This document shows, one piece after another, positions 7,163-43,462 of a stretch of 64,000 nt of DNA (position 1 is the stretch's first letter; the number at the start of each line of letters is the position of its first letter). The DNA is taken from the NCBI GenBank assembly GCA_016206925.1, contig JACQQS010000052.1:208-64207 (forward strand), in the 5' to 3' direction. Below the pieces are notes generated by a model, which saw only the letters and a program-made list of their open reading frames with translations, was not told the DNA's origin and ran no database searches. A program made the translations under genes and the position numbers. Origin of the DNA: Candidatus Omnitrophota bacterium (GTDB lineage: Bacteria; Omnitrophota; Omnitrophia; Omnitrophales; JACQQS01).

Positions 7163-10100
7163 ATGACAAAAATGTATAAATTTCGGCCGCAGCAAACTGG
7201 TTTGTATGATCCACGCAATGAGCGCGATGCCTGTGGTGTCGGATTCATTGCGAACATGAAGGGTGTTAAATCGCATGACATCGTTCAAAAAGGCATTCGG
7301 ATTTTAGTTAACCTTGCCCATCGCGGTGCGTGCGGCTGTGATCCGCTTACCGGCGACGGCGCCGGGCTTTTGATTCAAATTCCCCATGAATTTTTTGCGA
7401 GGGAAACGGAAAAACTGGGATTTGGCCTGCCTAAACCCGGTCAATATGGCGTGGGCATGGTTTTTATGCCGCGCGATTTGGAAGAGCGAAACCAGTGCAA
7501 ACTTATTTTTGAAACGATTGCGCGCGAGGAAGGTTTGGCCGTTCTTGGCTGGCGCGACGCTCCCCGCGACAACACGCACATCGGCTGGGTTGCCCGCGAA
7601 GCGGAGCCGGTCATCCGGCAAATTTTTCTCGGTGCCGGTCCGGATATCAAAGATACGAACCAGCTCCAGCGGAAGCTTTACGTCGTTCGCAAGTGTGTTG
7701 AAAACGCCGTAAGGAAACAGGGTTTAAGGGAGGAGAAATTTTTTTACGTGCCCAGCCTTTCTGCGCGTACGGTTGTGTACAAAGGCCAGCTCATTGCCTG
7801 GCAGCTTGAGAAATATTTTCTTGATCTGCACGATAATTCAATGGTCAGCGCCTTGGCCATGGTGCATTCGCGTTACAGCACGAACACATTTCCTTCCTGG
7901 GATCTCGCACATCCGTATCGTTTTATCTGCCATAACGGCGAAATCAATACGCTCCGCGGCAATATCAACTGGATGCGTACGCGGCAGGCCTTGATGGCCA
8001 GCGAACTTTTCGGTAAGGACATGAAAAAACTTTTCCCGATCATCAATGAAAAAGGGAGCGACTCAGCCATTTTTGATAATGCTCTGGAACTTCTCGTCAT
8101 GGGCGGCAGGAGTCTAAGACACGCCATTATGATGATGATTCCTGAGGCCTGGACCGGTGATGAATTCATGAGCCGGGAGAAAAAGGATTTTTACGAGTAT
8201 CATTCCTGTTCGATGGAGCCCTGGGATGGGCCGGCATCCATTGCCTTTTCCGACGGGCGGGAAATCGGCGCCGTGCTCGATCGAAACGGATTGAGGCCTT
8301 CGCGCTATACCGTTACGAAAGACGGTTTTGTCATTATGGCATCCGAAACCGGAGTGCTCGATATCGATCCGGCCAATGTGCTGCATAAAGACAGGCTCAC
8401 ACCGGGAAGGATGTTTTTGGTTTCGCTCGAAGAAGGCCGCATTATCGCGGACGAAGAAATTAAGCACCAGCTGGCCGCGCGGAGGCCGTACGGAAAATGG
8501 CTTAAGGAAAACCTTGTCCATTTAGAGAATGTTCCCAACCCGCGTTTTGTGCACGGATTTGACAAGGAGTCGCTGAAGAAACGGCAAGCAGCATTTGGAT
8601 ACACGGTCGAAGATCTTCGAATCATTATTGCACCGATGGCCATCGGTGCCCAGGAGCCCGTCGGTTCGATGGGAAATGATACGCCGCTCGCCTGTTTGTC
8701 CGACAAGGCGCCGCTTCTTTTTAACTACTTTAAACAATTGTTCGCGCAGGTGACCAATCCGCCCATCGATCCGATCCGTGAAGAGCTGGTCATGTCGACG
8801 GAGCTGACCATCGGTCAGGAACAAAATCTTTTGGACGAAACGCCGGAGCATTGCCATCAGCTTAAGCTGAAGCATCCGGTGATCAGTAACGAAGAGCTTG
8901 AGAAGATTCGAAACGTCGCCGAGGGAAAACTTCAATCGGCAACCATTCCTATCCTTTTCAACGTGGACAGCGGCCCGGATGAGTTAGAGAGGGCCATGAA
9001 AAAACTTTGCGAAGCGGCCTCGAAAGCGGTTGAGGAGGGAAACACGATTCTCATACTTTCAGACCGCGGCGTGGATGAGAAACATGCGCCCATTCCGAGC
9101 CTTCTGGCCGTTGCCGGTGTTCATCATCACCTCATTCGAGAAGGTACGCGGTCAAAAGTGGGTATCGTTATTGAAACGGGAGAGGCAAGGGAGATGCATC
9201 ATTTTGCCTTGCTCATCGGTTACGGAGCCGGCGCCGTAAATCCGTATCTTTGTTTTGAAACCATCATCCATCTCGTCCGCCATCCCGAAGTGCCGGGCAT
9301 CATGCCGACGGATTTGGATGAAAAGGATGCGGTCAAAAATTTCATCAAGGCCACACGTAAAGGCCTGCTCAAAATTATTTCTAAAATGGGCATCTCGACA
9401 ATTCAAAGTTACCGCGGCGCCCAGATTTTCGAAGCCGTGGGATTAAATGATGAGGTGATCGGCCGCTATTTTACGCATACCGCTTCCCGGGTTGGAGGTG
9501 TGGGTCTGGATGTCATCGGCAAAGAGGCGCTTATCCGCCACGAGCGGGCTTTCCCGAAACGGGAAACAACGGATAAACTTGAATTGGACGTGGGCGGTCA
9601 ATATCAATGGCGGCAGCGCGGCGAGTACCACATGTGGAATCCTGCTACGATCGCTTTGTTTCAACACGCCGTTCGTTCAGGAAAATATGAGCTCTTCAAG
9701 AAATTTTCTGAAACGGCCAATAGCTATGACAAGAAATTTTGCACGTTGCGTGGCCTTTTGGAATTTAAGTGGGCGGAGAAACCCGTTCCGATCGAAGAAG
9801 TCGAGCCGGTTTCAGAAATTGTAAAGCGTTTCAACACGGGCGCGATGTCTTTCGGATCTATCAGCAAGGAAGCGCATGAAAATCTGGCCATTGCCATGAA
9901 CCGCTTGGGCGGAAAGAGCAATACGGGCGAAGGCGGCGAAGATCCGGCGCGCTACATTCCGGATGCAAACGGAGACCTCCGGCGAAGCCGCATTAAACAG
10001 GTGGCTTCCGGCCGGTTCGGAGTGGATAGTTATTACCTCGTCCATGCGGATGAGCTTCAAATCAAAATGGCCCAGGGCGCCAAGCCCGGTGAAGGCGGGC

Positions 10101-11743
10101 AACTGCCGGGACACAAGGTGAGCCAGGAAATCGGCCGTGTGCGTTACACGACGCCCGGCGTTCAACTGATTTCCCCCGCGCCTCATCATGATATTTATTC
10201 CATTGAGGATTTGGCCCAGCTCATTTTTGATTTGAAAAACGGCAACGACCAGGCCAACATCAATGTGAAACTGGTAGCTGAAGTCGGCGTCGGCACCATT
10301 GCAGCCGGTGTGTCCAAAGGCCACGCGGAACTGGTGCTCATCAGCGGTGATACAGGCGGAACAGGGGCGTCACCGCAGACATCGATAAAACATGCGGGAC
10401 TTCCGTGGGAACTCGGCGTTGCCGAAACGCATCAGACACTTGTTTTAAACGATCTGCGCGGAAGAATAATCGTTCAGACGGATGGACAGATTAAGACCGG
10501 CCGCGATGTTGCCATGGCCGTGCTTCTCGGCGCAGAACAATGGGGTGTGGCCACCGGTTCGCTGATTGCTTCGGGTTGTATCATGATGCGCAAATGCCAT
10601 CTGAATACCTGTCCGGTCGGCGTTGCCACGCAGGATCCGGAGCTCAGAAAAAAGTTTTCGGGCAAACCCGATTACGTGGTTAATTTATTTTTCTTTATCG
10701 CTGAAGAACTTCGCGAAATCATGGCCAGGCTCGGTTTTCGCACCGTGAACGAAATGATCGGGCGCGTGGACAAGCTGGAAGTGAAAAAAGCGATCGATCA
10801 TTGGAAAGCCAAAGGACTTGATTTCAGCAAGATTTTGCATAAGCCCGATGTGCCGCCGCATATTGCCACGCACTGCGTCCAGAAGCAGGACCATGGCTTG
10901 TCGAAGGCGATCGACCACGAATTGGTTAAGGATTGCGCGAAGGCCATCGAGCGGAAGGAAAAGGTTCGTTTTGAACGTCCCATTCGAAACGCTAACCGCG
11001 CCGTGGGCGCCATTCTTTCAAGCCGGATTTCCCGCAAATATGGTTACGAAGGATTGCCGCAGGATACGATTCATATCAAATTCTCCGGCTCGGCGGGGCA
11101 GAGTTTTGGCTGCTGGCTTGCGCCGGGCATCACGCTTGAGCTGGAAGGCGATGCGAACGATTATTTGGGCAAAGGCCTCTCCGGCGGGAAACTCATCGCG
11201 TATCCGCCCAGGAATGCAAGTTATGTCCCCGAAGAAAATATCATCATCGGAAATGTTTGCTTCTATGGCGCCACGCGCGGCGAGGCTTACATACGGGGCA
11301 TGGCCGGCGAGCGGTTTTGTGTGCGTAATAGCGGCGTGCATGCCGTTGTCGAAGCGGTCGGCGATCATGGCTGCGAATACATGACGGGCGGATACGTTGT
11401 CGTGCTCGGGCCCACGGGACGGAATTTTGCGGCGGGCATGAGCGGTGGTATCGCGTACGTTCTTGATGAGAAAGGGAATTTCCCGAAGCTTTGCAATCAG
11501 GCCATGGTTGATCTGGAGAAGCCTGATGAAAAGGATATCGAGCGTATTGCCGGAATGATCGGGAAGCACATCGAATACACGCAAAGCAAGCTGGCTGCTG
11601 AAATTTTAAAACGCTGGGGCGATCTTGCGTCGAAATTTGTGAAAGTTTATCCGAAAGATTACAAGAGAGCGCTTACGGATCGCGCTAAGCAGGACGGTGA
11701 AGTTCAGCTGGCCAGCGCCGCCGTATTATCGAAAAGTGCATAA
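7163..11743 (+). CDS. gltB: glutamate synthase large subunit
   Basis: 1526 aa. Ntn-amidotransferase catalytic Cys context ([10 protein letters not shown]). FMN/Fe-S central domain (GEGGEDP..., [16 protein letters not shown]). GXGXG C-terminal domain. Confidence 0.95.
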
Positions 11744-11757
11744 GTATTCAAATGGAA

Positions 11758-11827
11758 AAATTCCAAATCCTAAGCACCAAATTCTAAACAAAATGCAAAA
11801 TCAGAAAATTCTAAACAATGAAATCAT
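11758..11827. repeat. cassette B left arm: about 10 A-rich heptads (AAATTCC AAATCCT AAGCACC AAATTCT ...)
   Basis: The 7-nt register was read directly. 11765-11773 AAATCCTAA is complementary to 12317-12325. The arm contains the ATG (11793) of the cargo gene. Confidence 0.65.
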
Positions 11828-12206
11828 ACCAGAGAAACTTTCAAGAGAGGTTCGTAAACAGGCCAAATACGACTTGGAAGACAGAACCCTTGCTTTTGCC
11901 GGCAAAGTCAGAGAATTTATAAAAATATTGCCAAGATCGACAGCTAATCTGGAAGACACTAGACAATTGATACGGTCTTCGGGTTCCGTTGGGGCGAACT
12001 ATATCGAGGCAAATGAATCACTCAGTAAAAAGGATTTTGTGCTACGCATTAAGATTTGTAAGAAAGAAGCAAAAGAAAGTCGATATTGGTTACGTCTCTT
12101 GGAAATGGATGGAAGATCAGAGGTAACCCGGTTTCGCGAAGACCTCATCGATGAAGTTACGCAACTAACGCGGATCTTTGCTTCGATTTTGACCAAGTGC
12201 GAGTGA
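11793..12206 (+). CDS. four-helix-bundle protein (23S rRNA intervening-sequence protein / Avd-like family)
   Basis: 137 aa from the internal ATG of track ORF 11697-12206. Motifs DLEDRTLAFAGKVREFIKILP, IRSSGSVGANYIEANESLSKKDFVLRIKICKKEAKESRYWLRLL. It looks AT-richer than its neighbours. Confidence 0.8.
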   Translation: MQNQKILNNEIIPEKLSREVRKQAKYDLEDRTLAFAGKVREFIKILPRSTANLEDTRQLIRSSGSVGANYIEANESLSKKDFVLRIKICKKEAKESRYWLRLLEMDGRSEVTRFREDLIDEVTQLTRIFASILTKCE

Positions 12207-12253
12207 GTTGAGCACGCTTTTATTTTCCGTGTTTAGTACGGATTTTGGTTCGA

Positions 12254-12337
12254 GTTTATTTGCGGTTGTGTATTCTTAAAGTTTATTTCGTTTGTTTGTG
12301 ATTTGGAATTTGGAATTTAGGATTTTGTGAGGGTTAG
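12254..12337. repeat. cassette B right arm: about 12 T/G-rich heptads including TTGGAAT TTGGAAT TTAGGAT
   Basis: The 7-nt register was read directly. It is complementary to the left arm, giving about 35 bp of imperfect duplex if G-U pairs are allowed. It ends 3 nt before the gltD ATG. Confidence 0.65.
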
Positions 12338-12340
12338 GTT

Positions 12341-13792
12341 ATGGGTGACGTGCAAGGGTTCATGAAATATAAGCGCGAGGATATCGAGGACCGCCCCGTC
12401 GAGGAGCGGTTAAAAGACTACCAGGATGTCCATATTCCGCTTCCGGAGGACAAGCTCAAGATCCAAGCCGCGCGCTGCATGGACTGCGGAACGCCCTTCT
12501 GTCACACCGGCTTCTCGGGCTGTCCGATTAATAACATCATTCCTGACTGGAACGATTTGGTTTACCGCAACCGCTGGCAGGAAGCCATCGAAGTGCTCCA
12601 CTCCACCAATAATTTTCCCGAATTTACCGGGCAGGTTTGCCCGGCGCCCTGTGAAGGCGCTTGCGTGCTTGGCATTAACGAACCGCCGGTTACGATTAAA
12701 AATATCGAACATGCCATTATTGAGCATGCTTTCCGCGAAGGCTGGGTAAAACCCGAACCGCCCAAAACGGAGACCGGGAAAAAAGTTGCGGTTATCGGTT
12801 CGGGCCCTGCGGGACTTGCTTGCGCTCAACAGCTCCGGCGCGCAGGGCATCAAGTCACCGTTTACGAGAAGGACGACCGGATCGGCGGGCTTTTAATGTA
12901 CGGCATTCCGGATTTTAAATTGGAGAAAGAAGTCGTCGAACGCCGCGTTGCGCAGATGGCCGAAGAGGGTGTAAAGTTTGTTACTAATGCGCACGTCGGA
13001 GTGAATGCGGATGTTTCCGGGCTCAGGAAAAATTTTGACGCCCTATGCCTTGCCGGCGGAGCCCAGCAGCCCCGCGATCTTCCGATTGAGGGCCGCGATT
13101 TAAAGGGTATCCACTTTGCGATGGAATTTCTGCCCCAGCAGAACCGCCGTGTCGCCGGCGAAAAGGTCGCTCCCGATAGAAGCATTACCGCGAAGGACAA
13201 GCGCGTTATCATTATTGGCGGCGGCGATACGGGCTCGGACTGTATCGGCACGTCGCTCCGCCACGGATGCAAATCGCTGACTTCTTTTGAACTGCTTCCT
13301 AAACCGCCGGATGACCGCGCACCGGAAAATCCCTGGCCGCTTTGGCCGCAGATTTTCCGTGTCTCCTCCTCACATGCGGAAGGCGGCAAGCGCGAGTTTT
13401 CGGTTTTAACCAAGCGCTTTATCGGTGAAAACGGCCATGTCAAGAAACTCCAGGCCTGCCATGCCGAATTTGTCCCTTCGAGTAACGGCACCGGCCGCTC
13501 CGAAATGCGTGAGATTCCGGGTTCCCAATTTGAAATTCCCGCCGATCTGGTACTTCTCGCAATGGGGTTTCTCGGCCCGGTTAAAAAAGGCATGATTGAA
13601 CAGCTTGGCGTTGAGCTCGACAGCCGAGGAAATGTGAAAGCCGATGAAAATAAAATGACCAGCGTTCCCGGCGTATTCACCGCAGGCGACATGACCCGTG
13701 GCCAATCCCTTGTGGTCTGGGCCATCCATGAAGGCCGCGCCGCTGCGCGCGGTATCGACAAATTCCTCATGGGTTCCACCGTCTTACCCTAG
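12341..13792 (+). CDS. gltD: glutamate synthase small subunit (NADPH)
   Basis: 483 aa. Fe-S Cys clusters (CMDCGTPFC, CPAPCEGAC) and two dinucleotide folds (VAVIGSGPAGLACA, VIIIGGGDTGSDC). Confidence 0.95.
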   Translation: MGDVQGFMKYKREDIEDRPVEERLKDYQDVHIPLPEDKLKIQAARCMDCGTPFCHTGFSGCPINNIIPDWNDLVYRNRWQEAIEVLHSTNNFPEFTGQVCPAPCEGACVLGINEPPVTIKNIEHAIIEHAFREGWVKPEPPKTETGKKVAVIGSGPAGLACAQQLRRAGHQVTVYEKDDRIGGLLMYGIPDFKLEKEVVERRVAQMAEEGVKFVTNAHVGVNADVSGLRKNFDALCLAGGAQQPRDLPIEGRDLKGIHFAMEFLPQQNRRVAGEKVAPDRSITAKDKRVIIIGGGDTGSDCIGTSLRHGCKSLTSFELLPKPPDDRAPENPWPLWPQIFRVSSSHAEGGKREFSVLTKRFIGENGHVKKLQACHAEFVPSSNGTGRSEMREIPGSQFEIPADLVLLAMGFLGPVKKGMIEQLGVELDSRGNVKADENKMTSVPGVFTAGDMTRGQSLVVWAIHEGRAAARGIDKFLMGSTVLP

Positions 13793-18601: not shown

Positions 18602-18784
18602 ACCGCTTGATTAAGCGCTGGTCGGGCGCCGCTTGTTCGAGCGGCGGTCGGCCGCTTAGTCCGGCGGTACCGAACGGTCGGTTCGGCGCTTGGTCAGGCG
18701 GTACCGTGCGATCGGCACGGTAATGCTCTTAAAGTATGCCATAGGGTGTTAATACGTCCAATGGGGGTGGGTGAGTTGTCATTA

Positions 18785-26480: not shown

Positions 26481-26586
26481 AGGCCGCATAGTATATCGGC
26501 AGGCCGCGCGGGTTGGCAAGGCAAGCTTTCTCGACGAACTTTCTAAACTGTTTGGCCGTCACGCGTTGATGATATAATGCATAAAA

Positions 26587-26615
26587 AGGTAACGGGAAAC
26601 AGGTAACGGGAAAAC
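26587..26615 (+). repeat. tandem direct repeat AGGTAACGGGAAAC x2 in the msrB leader
   Basis: 26587-26600 and 26601-26615 (the second copy has one extra A). It ends 4 nt before the GTG start. An extended -10-like TGATATAAT lies about 20 nt upstream. Confidence 0.6.
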
Positions 26616-26619
26616 TACG

Positions 26620-27012
26620 GTGAAGAAAATTATAAAGTCGGAAGAGGAATGGAAGAAAGTTCTCACACCAGAGCAGTTTCAGGTAGCGCGAGAAAAAGGT
26701 ACAGAGCCCGCATTTTCCGGAAAATATAACGCCTGCAAAGACAAAGGCATGTACCGCTGTGTTTGCTGCGGCGCCGATCTTTTTAGTTCCGAAACCAAAT
26801 TTGATTCCGGAACCGGCTGGCCGAGTTTTTTTAAACCGGCCAAAAAGGAAAACGTGCGGGCCGAAGATGATTTCAGTTACAACATGCGCCGCACGGAGGT
26901 TCTCTGTAACGTTTGCGGCGCCCATCTCGGCCATCTCTTTAATGACGGGCCGGAGCCTACCGGTCTTCGCTATTGCGTTAACTCCGCCACCCTCAAGTTA
27001 ACAAAGACTTAA
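26620..27012 (+). CDS. msrB: peptide-methionine (R)-S-oxide reductase
   Basis: 130 aa with a GTG start. Zn-Cys pairs CVCCGADLF and [12 protein letters not shown], plus the GTGWPSF and RYCVNS motifs. Confidence 0.92.
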
Positions 27013-34340: not shown

Positions 34341-34587
34341 AGTTTTACACCTCCAGTTTATTTATCCAGTTTATTTAACCAAAGTTTTTTAAAAGTCCTT
34401 CAGAACGTGGGCAAAAAAAAACGCTCGCGCGCTAAAACTTCTGGTTTTTCAGATGCAAAAGTATAACATCCCGGCATTTAAGATTCAAACTCTCTTGGCT
34501 GATATCGCCGTAAGATAAGGTTTAGAAAAGACTTATCGCTGTTGAGTGGCGAAACTCTTCCCGTTGTATCGGCCCGGGTTATTTCTG

Positions 34588-38175: not shown

Positions 38176-38231
38176 GAGAGCTATCAGCTATCAGCTGTCA
38201 GCTTTCAGCTAACAGCTCAGACCAAGGAGCA
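38176..38231. repeat. cassette D: the whole ilvB-ilvN spacer is an in-phase heptad array (AGAGAGC TATCAGC TATCAGC TGTCAGC TTTCAGC TAACAGC TCAGACC AAGGAGC)
   Basis: Eight 7-nt units were read directly. The unit core CAGCT is self-complementary, so the two halves can pair. The last unit is the ilvN SD. Confidence 0.7.
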
Positions 38232-43215: not shown

Positions 43216-43462
43216 CGGAAGACAGTTGAGAGACGATAGACGAAGGAAGAGAGACGATGAAAAGAGCAAGAAAAACTCCGAAAACAAAAGCCTAGGATAA
43301 TGAAAATGGTATCGCATAATTGCAAAATGAAGAGTGGTGAGCAAAAATTAAATCTTTCTTTTGTACACCTTTTTGCTTTTTCTATTCTTTCCCATTATTT
43401 CCTCTCTCGCCCTTCGTCTCTCGTCCATCGTCCTTCGTCCGTCTTCCTTTCTCTGGTTCTCG
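43214..43462. repeat. hairpin-armed intercistronic cassette C (purine-rich GA-heptads on the left, complementary TCGTC-heptads on the right)
   Basis: Left arm at 43214-43276: GACGGAA GACAGTT GAGAGAC GATAGAC GAAGGAA GAGAGAC GATGAAA... Right arm at 43400-43462: TCCTCTC TCGCCCT TCGTCTC TCGTCCA TCGTCCT TCGTCCG TCTTCCT... GGAAGAC (43217-43223) pairs with GTCTTCC (43441-43447), and about 26 of the next 35 positions pair if G-U is allowed. Confidence 0.7.

Follow-up and report, generated by a model that had tools for sequence, protein, structure and literature searches.

A four-helix-bundle protein gene between imperfectly complementary heptamer arrays separates gltB from gltD in a Candidatus Omnitrophota genome

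The gltB-gltD locus

A 64-kb stretch of DNA from a Candidatus Omnitrophota bacterium (contig JACQQS010000052.1), hereafter the window, carries the glutamate synthase genes gltB and gltD separated by a spacer of 597 nt (11744-12340), and this spacer contains a small gene for a four-helix-bundle (4HB) protein. A first-pass annotation of the window, made from its letters alone, had proposed the spacer to be a mobile or processed cassette resembling the intervening sequences (IVSs) of 23S rRNA, with the 4HB gene carried between complementary arms of 7-nt units. The analysis reported here concerns that spacer and its relatives in other genomes. We find that an inserted copy of a compact and widespread element makes up the spacer, the element consisting of a 4HB gene between two imperfectly complementary heptamer arrays. 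The features of the locus are as follows.

7163-11743, + strand: gltB, glutamate synthase large subunit (Pfam GATase_2, Glu_syn_central, Glu_synthase and GXGXG)
11757-11856, + strand: left arm (repeat families D1 and I1; period-7 and pairing tests; aligned to the family consensus)
11793-12206, + strand: gene for the 4HB protein, 137 aa (TIGR02436 and PF05635)
12226-12242, + strand: weak terminator-like hairpin, seven pairs then TTTTGG (consensus match only)
12237-12327, + strand: right arm (tandem-repeat, period-7 and pairing tests)
12331-12335, + strand: Shine-Dalgarno sequence GAGGG of gltD, directly 3' of the stem
12341-13792, + strand: gltD (Pfam)

Pfam assigned both flanking genes, and the length of the gap between them was as first described. 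The open reading frame (ORF) at 11793-12206 is oriented in the same direction as gltB and gltD, and its product is an Avd-like 4HB protein of the IVS-protein family, so that the label originally given to it was correct: it scored 46.2 bits against PF05635 (cut-off 33.8) and 67 bits against TIGR02436 (cut-off 24). The start codon had also been rightly placed within the left arm, the ATG at 11793 being the sole in-frame start outside gltB. The inner part of this arm covers the first 21 codons, and the first ~25 residues of the protein, which are encoded by the arm, are predicted to be disordered. The whole protein is 100% identical to that of a Candidatus Omnitrophica metagenome-assembled genome. 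An AlphaFold2 monomer model built with 20 homologues (mean predicted local distance difference test score, pLDDT, of 85) consists of four long helices, for which Foldseek returned the S23-family structures 2RLD and 2GSC as the best matches, followed by the Avd structures 4DWL and 8UB7 at a target-normalised TM-score of ~0.73. By sequence, phmmer matched 2RLD, which has five chains, at E = 6e-13, and a family protein from Xanthomonas has been reported as a pentamer (PMC4990558).

Scanning of the spacer revealed no promoter-like sites. Rfam detected no family in the whole window at gathering thresholds, nor in the spacer at E<=1, and no rRNA. The weak hairpin at 12226-12242 sits 20 nt past the stop codon of the ORF, where the right arm has its inner edge. 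No 4HB gene other than the copy between gltB and gltD was found in the 64-kb window.

The two arms are able to pair with each other. As noted in the first pass, the 9-mers AAATCCTAA (11765-11773) and TTAGGATTT (12317-12325) are exact complements; the duplex of about 35 bp that had been drawn around them does pair, but its extent was underestimated, since the pairing continues over 11765-11856 with 12237-12325. The controls were composition-preserving shuffles. When G·U pairs were allowed, 89 aligned positions gave a score of 70 against 43.6±6.3 for the shuffles, 1 of 200 reaching the observed value, while Watson-Crick pairs only gave 39 against 25.8±4.7 (4 of 200 shuffles) and an alternative scoring was not reached by any of 300. 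Taken alone, the arms of the window are imperfectly complementary at p about 0.005-0.02. A comparison of duplex energy with that of displaced flanks gave no usable contrast, the coding flanks being GC-richer.

Identity at lag 7 was highest in the outer right arm (0.73 at 12291-12327, p<0.0002), with values of 0.48 at 11758-11827 on the left (p=0.017) and 0.45 at 12254-12337 on the right (p=0.04), and Tandem Repeats Finder (TRF) reported a period of 7 at 12301-12327. The outer left arm (11757-11791) is a run of A-rich heptamers, AAATTCC AAATCCT AAGCACC AAATTCT AAAC, and the inner left arm is degenerate and partially duplicates it (repeat family D1). The outer right arm (12291-12327) is T/G-rich, reading TTTGTTT GTGATTT GGAATTT GGAATTT AGGATTT, again with a degenerate inner part. 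Because period 7 is clear only in these outer parts, we count ~4-5 clean heptamers per arm; the arrays exist, but the 10 and 12 heptads initially listed include the degenerate units. Nor does the right array end 3 nt from the gltD ATG, as had been stated: the clean array stops at 12327, 13 nt upstream. A block described in the T-rich tract, TTATTTTCC, was found at 12220-12228, and the 6 matches to TTATTTCC in the window do not amount to an enrichment over the 3.9 expected.

Conservation of the gene-plus-arms design

Relatives were collected by scanning one genome of each GTDB species for a pattern, which yielded 595 4HB loci. The best 80 of these, with proteins ~55-67% identical to that of the window, were taken for comparison, and 78 could be scored; individual loci are referred to below by L-numbers. 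Their hosts belong to more than ten phyla and include Pirellulales, Phycisphaerae, Desulfobacterota, many Patescibacteria, Verrucomicrobiota, Balneolaceae, Chloroflexota, Chlorobi and Gammaproteobacteria, among others. Complementary arms, counted per locus at z>3, were present in 61 of the 78 loci, and lag 7 was the best lag in 60 left and 58 right arms. On direct reading, nearly all related loci shared one typical layout. On the left side the upstream stop codon is followed by 3-5 AAATnCn heptamers and then by AAACAAATTCAAATGACCGAAATACAAAATTCAAAACA, which contains the ATG; the protein core that comes next is conserved; on the right side the ORF stop is followed by TGTTTTGAACATTTG...TTGTTT, by 3-5 complementary heptamers and by the ribosome-binding site of the next gene.

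When 36 elements were aligned, AA on the left arm and TT on the right arm were invariant every 7 nt, and RNAalifold recovered the arm-arm helix from the alignment. In the zipped 33-pair consensus helix, 81% of cells were paired compared with 76.5% in shuffles (0 of 500 reaching the observed value) and with ~50% when the partner was slid by one column. Position 4 of the heptamer switches on both arms, being G-C in ~16 sequences, U-A in ~14 and C-G in 2-3. A canonical member had its arms paired in both the minimum-energy and the centroid folds (z = -4.25). With this fold, a conserved register and arms in 61 of the 78 loci, the arrangement of a gene inside a long stem, which had been proposed from the window, is supported as a recurrent and conserved one at operon junctions. 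The window copy is a somewhat degenerate, lengthened member of the family.

The same comparison bears on whether the pairing is a chance match of low-complexity A-rich and T-rich flanks around a small AT-rich gene. For the window copy alone the Watson-Crick pairing has a p of about 0.02 and the whole-spacer fold a z of -0.71, and complementary base composition inflates apparent pairing. Composition-keeping shuffles are still beaten, however, and the same design, with its phase conserved, recurs in those 61 loci, with unrelated heptamers in distant members. It is because of the family comparison, and less so because of the window copy alone, that the observation lies beyond chance; the chance explanation is refuted by it and we regard it as scarcely credible.

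The upstream gene shared its strand with the 4HB gene in 68 of 78 loci, and so did the downstream gene in 60 of 75; both counts rest on crude ORF calls. Second, divergent 4HB genes were found in L056, between leuD and leuB (arms AAAAGGC/GCCTTTT), and in L025 (arms AATTAGC/GCTAATT). At 4380-4600 of L025, the left arm and the first ~15 codons of the divergent gene are tandemly triplicated (unit ~88 nt). Further complementary short-repeat stretches lie outside the AAATnCn arms in L044, L025, L028 and L014, as if these were nested in another hairpin.

A distant set of ten plasmid-borne 4HB relatives, 33-39% identical to the window protein, was also inspected, and complementary heptamer arrays were found to bracket 9 of the 10. 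Their arrays are listed here.

Nostoc flagelliforme and Aulosira: plasmid 4HB arms (AATTCAA)4 with (TTTTGAA)4-5
Nostoc punctiforme PCC 73102: plasmid 4HB arms (CAATTCG)4 with (TTGCGAA)4; also GTCGGAG with CGACCTC
Nostoc sp. C052: plasmid 4HB arms (AATTCGT)4 with (TTACGAA)4
Candidatus Chlorohelix plasmid (L206): 4HB arms ATGAATT with AATTCAT
Two Nostocales plasmid copies: GTAAAAA-type arrays, between cas2 and cas1
Pseudanabaena plasmid: CTTCnnn heptamers upstream and a short complementary stretch past the stop codon
Bernardetia plasmid (L205), the tenth relative: arrays in direct orientation

Since the heptamer sequences vary, what is constant in the family is the 7-nt period, a count of about four units and the fact that the arrays bracket the ORF. 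The armed 4HB genes on plasmids of Anabaena cylindrica, Nostoc sp. TCL26-01 and Pseudanabaena (L209, L210 and L211) either separate cas2 from cas1 or lie a short way upstream of cas1, and are antisense to the cas genes in both Nostocales cases (Anabaena cylindrica and Nostoc sp. TCL26-01). The 23S_rRNA_IVP domain is listed among proteins associated with CRISPR adaptation modules in a clustering study (PMC10910872). In L206 the 4HB gene stands between helicase-related and N6 DNA methylase genes, all on the same strand.

Insertion and residence

The gltD of the window had no exact counterpart on record, and its relatives were found by homology. Insertion of the element between gltB and gltD, as originally proposed, was supported by an empty junction in the relative L082, the gltD protein of which is 88% identical to that of the window. 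There the gltB TAG is followed by GCGGAAAATTCC and the ATG of gltD, giving a gap of 12 nt. In L081, where the gltD protein is also 88% identical, the junction is occupied by a GC-rich hairpin of ~119 nt (9991-10109) that is unlike the window element; as this hairpin differs from the 4HB element, two kinds of hairpin have colonised the gltB-gltD junction independently. L081 in turn is empty at the site of cassette A, another heptamer-armed hairpin of the window that is described below, with 16 nt between proteins 85% and 87% identical to those of the window. No target-site duplication was visible when filled and empty sites were compared at the gltB-gltD junction and at cassette A. We conclude that the window element is very probably both a member of this family and an insertion.

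The empty L082 spacer (624-635) matches the start of the left arm, GGAAAAATTCC (window 11753-11763), and the first heptamer of cassette A, AGTAGCC, runs on from the upstream stop codon (AAAAAGTAG followed by CC, 2391-2402). The outermost heptamer may derive from, or select, the target sequence.

Elements were found at the leuC-leuD junction in eleven Planctomycetota loci and at the 3' end of a leuB-like gene in Pirellulales, Sedimentisphaerales and a Chlorobiaceae genome. A Levyibacteria genome (L022) has its copy between ruvA and ruvB, and a Gammaproteobacterium (L052) has the same ruvA-like upstream gene; other sites are the gene upstream of recA (Balneolaceae) and V-type ATPase genes. Among Planctomycetota, the 4HB proteins cluster by site and not by host order, with nearest neighbours occupying the same site, and the leuC-leuD copies have a mean identity of 74% compared with 70% to copies at other Planctomycetota sites. 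Because copies at the same junction are each other's closest kin, they have long been inherited with the operon, under purifying selection. The term mobile, used for the cassette in the first-pass annotation, is apt in that gain and loss occur, as at gltB-gltD, but same-junction copies are orthologous across Planctomycetota orders and are long-term residents. No transposase or recombinase was found in or beside the elements, either in the window or in the related loci, and searches of phages gave two weak partial matches only, and thus nothing to suggest that viruses carry the element.

Copies without the gene

Hairpins with the same arms and no ORF were identified in L001 (three copies), L005, L008, L012, L016, L023, L044, L057 and L060. 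They lie beside or near full copies, and retain the arms and the ATG-bearing inner stem without the protein core. Since the ATG-bearing inner arm is retained, these copies descend from gene-carrying ones, and they behave as miniature derivatives would. Copies that have lost the gene alone, as anticipated in the first pass, do therefore exist, and are common, in genomes other than that of the window (L001, L005, L008 and others). Within the window, three cassettes at other junctions had been put forward as cargo-less or decayed siblings.

2394-2650, + strand: cassette A, with an AGTAGCC-type arm (2394-2428), a GGCTACT-type arm (2612-2650) and a loop of ~180 nt without recognisable gene
38178-38217, + strand: cassette C, 5.6 AGCTATC heptamers in a one-sided array that lies between two genes and lacks a complementary partner
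43226-43446, + strand: cassette D, with a GAGACGA-type arm (43226-43272), a TCGTCTC-type arm (43397-43446) and a loop without recognisable gene

Cassettes A and D do share the design of a heptamer-armed hairpin at a junction, with fold z values of -3.75 (A) and -2.96 (D) and lag-7 p≤0.013, and TRF also reported period 7 at 2395-2424 (A), 38179-38217 (C) and 43421-43440 (D). The siblingship goes no further, however: the heptamers differ, cassette C is one-sided, and no remnant of a 4HB gene was detected in the loops of cassettes A, C and D (best E = 0.64). An alignment of cassette A with cassette D was unconvincing, only a T-rich tract and a TTTCCC(G/-)ATTATTTCC-like motif being common to the two. 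The IVS-like cassette as first described is in sum partly supported, being right on architecture, protein family and insertion, conjectural on cleavage and overstated for cassettes A, C and D.

Scanning of metagenomes for the heptamer pair of cassette A returned at least 120 loci, which include many short hairpins located at gene junctions. No 4HB match was found in 376 kb from these AGTAGCC loci with the subfamily model, which distant members could escape. On one metagenome contig (L190), an AGTAGCC-type hairpin lies between apparent rpsJ and rplC genes, within a ribosomal protein operon.

The abundance of such gene-less hairpins, and the lack of a gene in cassettes A, C and D, would suit an explanation in which the arrays are ordinary slippage-prone host repeats that tune translation or mRNA stability, the 4HB gene being there incidentally. 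Heptamers near start codons in Beggiatoa, cyanobacteria and Bacteroidetes (PMC4679880; bioRxiv 10.1101/2022.06.06.494920) point the same way. We nevertheless consider it very unlikely, as arms and gene are co-inherited in a register that is nucleotide-exact across phyla, with the place of the ATG fixed and the right arm starting from the stop codon. The complementary arrays around 9 of the 10 distant plasmid genes start and end at the ORF, the ORF-less copies retain the ATG-bearing inner arm, and the sampled loci already point to an enrichment of 4HB genes between inverted heptamer arrays.

Other repeats were noted elsewhere in the window. The 14-mer AAAAAGGTAACGGG is repeated 2.3 times at 26583-26614, just upstream of a GTG at 26620 that opens a small, cysteine-rich ORF (CxxC motifs), possibly MsrB-like. 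Intergenic tandem repeats are also present at 18603-18655 (26-nt unit, two copies) and 34352-34381 (13-nt unit, 2.3 copies).

Proposed mode of action

Our working interpretation, held with modest conviction, is a composite one, in which the window spacer is an inserted IVS-type element that acts mainly via its transcribed stem. The element is probably transcribed within the gltBD message, and the arms would zip in this transcript into a long interrupted stem, hiding the AUG of the 4HB gene and leaving the gltD ribosome-binding site exposed. By analogy with rRNA intervening sequences, the stem could then be cut by RNase III or a similar double-strand nuclease, the choice of RNase III specifically being tentative. 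Such a cut would separate the gltB message from the gltD message and restrict translation of the 4HB gene. Whether the stem forms and matters at the RNA level is a nearly even question, on which we incline slightly to doubt. In favour of the composite interpretation we count the empty sites in L082 and L081, the family-wide arms with their conserved register, the distant members with arms of other heptamers, the lack of a promoter-like site in the spacer, the prevailing co-orientation with both neighbours, the ORF-less hairpins and, as the best precedent, the IVS of Coxiella 23S rRNA.

Several observations weigh against this interpretation. The window arms by themselves only modestly exceed chance pairing, and the fold energy of the whole spacer is unexceptional compared with shuffles (z = -0.71), although both arms are paired in its minimum-energy fold. 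Across the family, G·U and A·C mismatches occur in similar numbers (90 against 80, and 64 against 75 in a second count). The variable heptamer positions are 35% Watson-Crick within an element and 42% between elements, with 1998 of 2000 shuffles giving higher values. This deficit, where an excess had been expected, arises from the order of heptamer variants, which is conserved separately in each arm, and the stem is therefore made of 4-5-bp blocks split by 2-3-nt mismatches, a poor classic RNase III substrate. In the alignment, elements with mixed heptamers (L048 and L074) lack pair-by-pair compensation. Lastly, 3 of the 10 plasmid relatives are antisense to both neighbours, and the Bernardetia arrays are direct and not inverted. 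The comparative data carry no RNA-specific signal, and a DNA-level or protein-binding role would fit them at least as well.

In that alternative, the arms would be arrays of DNA-level or protein-binding sites, inverted at the two ends as in foldback or other transposon ends and recognised by the enclosed 4HB protein or by a recombinase acting in trans, and their complementarity would be a by-product of the inversion. Such an arrangement would explain why only the conserved heptamer core pairs while the variable positions fall below chance in an arm-specific order, why G·U and A·C are similarly common, and why the heptamer type is uniform within an element without compensation pair by pair. It also accommodates one-sided or direct arrays, as in cassette C, Bernardetia and the published TAACTGA and TTTTGAA arrays, and the protein partner of heptamer arrays, as yet unidentified, that has been postulated for Nostoc (bioRxiv 10.1101/2022.06.06.494920). 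C-terminal residues of the 4HB protein were found to track heptamer type at 87%, compared with at most 78% in permutations, in a test that did not correct for phylogeny; in an alignment of 54 proteins, columns 102 (K/H against N) and 112 (K against E/Q) track CTAAAT- against CGAAAT-type heptamers, which may reflect either clade structure or recognition.

Set against these points, neither a transposase or recombinase in or beside the elements nor a target-site duplication between filled and empty sites was observed, and wholly different heptamers between members would require a co-evolving specificity. Most copies are co-oriented with the surrounding operon, and those family members that lie in rRNA have been shown to undergo processing as RNA stems (PMC4990558). 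We rate this alternative as the main rival but rather unlikely, and retain the reading of an inserted element acting mainly through its transcribed stem.

A broader proposal, which we offer as a distinctly unlikely one, is that the 4HB protein is the missing partner of bacterial heptamer repeats. A ring of the protein would bind ~4-5 heptamers on DNA or RNA, each subunit taking one heptamer, and gene and arms would together form a self-maintaining foldback-type element at hairpin-tolerant sites such as operon junctions and rRNA helix tips. Intervening sequences of rRNA, the cyanobacterial STRR (short tandemly repeated repetitive)/TTTTGAA arrays and the inverted GGGAATC pairs of Xanthomonas would then be its products or relics.

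Significance

The family PF05635/TIGR02436 gave at least 8000 candidates in the protein search and has solved structures, and it has no known function outside diversity-generating retroelements. Intergenic heptamer repeats have been described from several groups of bacteria and still lack an accepted explanation (PMC4692102, PMC4679880), and the origin of rRNA intervening sequences is likewise unsettled (PMC4990558). These three matters are connected by the finding that 4HB genes are habitually set between inverted heptamer arrays, both in operons and in rRNA, in hosts that range from candidate phyla to culturable Nostoc. The link is testable in tractable hosts, for example Nostoc punctiforme PCC 73102 with its plasmids pNPUN01 and pNPUN02. 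For genome annotation, the element accounts for oddly long spacers within conserved operons.

Comparison with known systems

Small junction elements that are co-transcribed and fold into long hairpins are known as Correia/NEMIS in Neisseria and ERIC in enterobacteria, and NEMIS hairpins are cut by RNase III, altering the stability of the flanking messages. Their terminal repeats are of fixed sequence, their targets are duplicated, and they occur in many near-identical copies. The ORF-less 4HB copies look like hairpins of this type, and terminal inverted repeats are common to both (arms of ~65-90 nt in the 4HB element). In contrast to miniature inverted-repeat elements, the heptamers differ between copies, no target duplication was seen and the gene carried is for a 4HB protein and not for a transposase. 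Nor were near-identical copies found, the 64-kb window containing one 4HB gene and cassettes A and D having other arms. In eukaryotic foldback transposons, too, short tandem repeats make up long inverted arms, which vary in length and occasionally enclose a gene. Their repeat sizes are different, and the analogy is one of architecture only, with no kinship implied.

Avd and S23p are both filed under PF05635 in Pfam (PMC10053308). The Avd protein of diversity-generating retroelements has the same fold as the window protein, which by sequence is nearest to the S23p branch (2RLD). The immediate neighbours of the window gene are gltB and gltD, with no reverse transcriptase or template/variable repeat pair adjoining, and the neighbours of 4HB genes in related loci are housekeeping operon genes.

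Published heptamer repeats resemble the arms in consisting of tandem 7-nt units, usually ~4, in intergenic positions; besides the cyanobacterial STRR/GGGGAYT repeats, they include 70-75 convergent GGGAATC array pairs per Xanthomonas genome, interpreted as G-quadruplex sequences (PMC4692102), TAACTGA arrays in Beggiatoaceae, cyanobacteria and Bacteroidetes (PMC4679880) and TTTTGAA/TTCAAAA arrays in Nostoc 7120, where an unknown partner has been postulated to bind them (bioRxiv 10.1101/2022.06.06.494920). Like the arms, they often occur at same-strand junctions near stop or start codons and as convergent stem-loop pairs, and TTTTGAA/TTCAAAA of Nostoc 7120 is the same heptamer as in the 4HB-gene arms of N. 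flagelliforme and Aulosira. They differ in that they have been interpreted as G-quadruplexes, translational signals or promoter elements, and text searches of PMC4692102, PMC4679880 and bioRxiv 10.1101/2022.06.06.494920 turned up no mention of an enclosed gene or of the S23p/4HB family. Heptad-periodic arms had been thought undescribed for elements of this kind, which is not entirely the case given the tandem heptamers by the ATG of the Coxiella S23p gene (PMC4990558) and the convergent arrays in Xanthomonas (PMC4692102), although the connection proposed here is drawn in neither of these papers. In the open-access literature and bioRxiv we found no paper linking the 4HB/S23p family to heptamer arms at operon junctions, an earlier description being possible.

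Intervening sequences of rRNA with an S23p ORF (Coxiella, Leptospira, Brucella and bacteria of the candidate phyla radiation, CPR) are the nearest known counterpart of the window element and resemble it in having the same protein family in the loop and complementary ends that form a stem around the ORF, the stem of the window element being interrupted every 7 nt. Their distribution is patchy and they are held to be selfish or horizontally spread (PMC4990558; PMC11270868), and in rRNA insertions of CPR bacteria the S23p family is functionally uncharacterised (PMC11270868). The IVS in Coxiella 23S rRNA comprises an S23p ORF and a 28-bp terminal stem, and is excised by RNase III in vitro with mapped ends; 2-3 tandem GACAGAT heptamers, strain-variable in copy number, precede the ATG, and the ORF is apparently untranslated, its ribosome-binding site being cut away (PMC4990558). 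The tandem heptamers by the ATG and the want of a good ribosome-binding site for the ORF are shared with the window element. The rRNA elements are inserted in a helix of 23S or 16S rRNA (25 or 45), whereas the window element occupies the gltB-gltD operon junction, and the 28-bp stem of Coxiella is near-perfect, whereas the arms of the operon elements extend over ~65-90 nt of interrupted heptamer pairing. Finally, the ORF of the Coxiella IVS is decaying, whereas the Planctomycetota operon copies are stably inherited, with an ORF under clear purifying selection.

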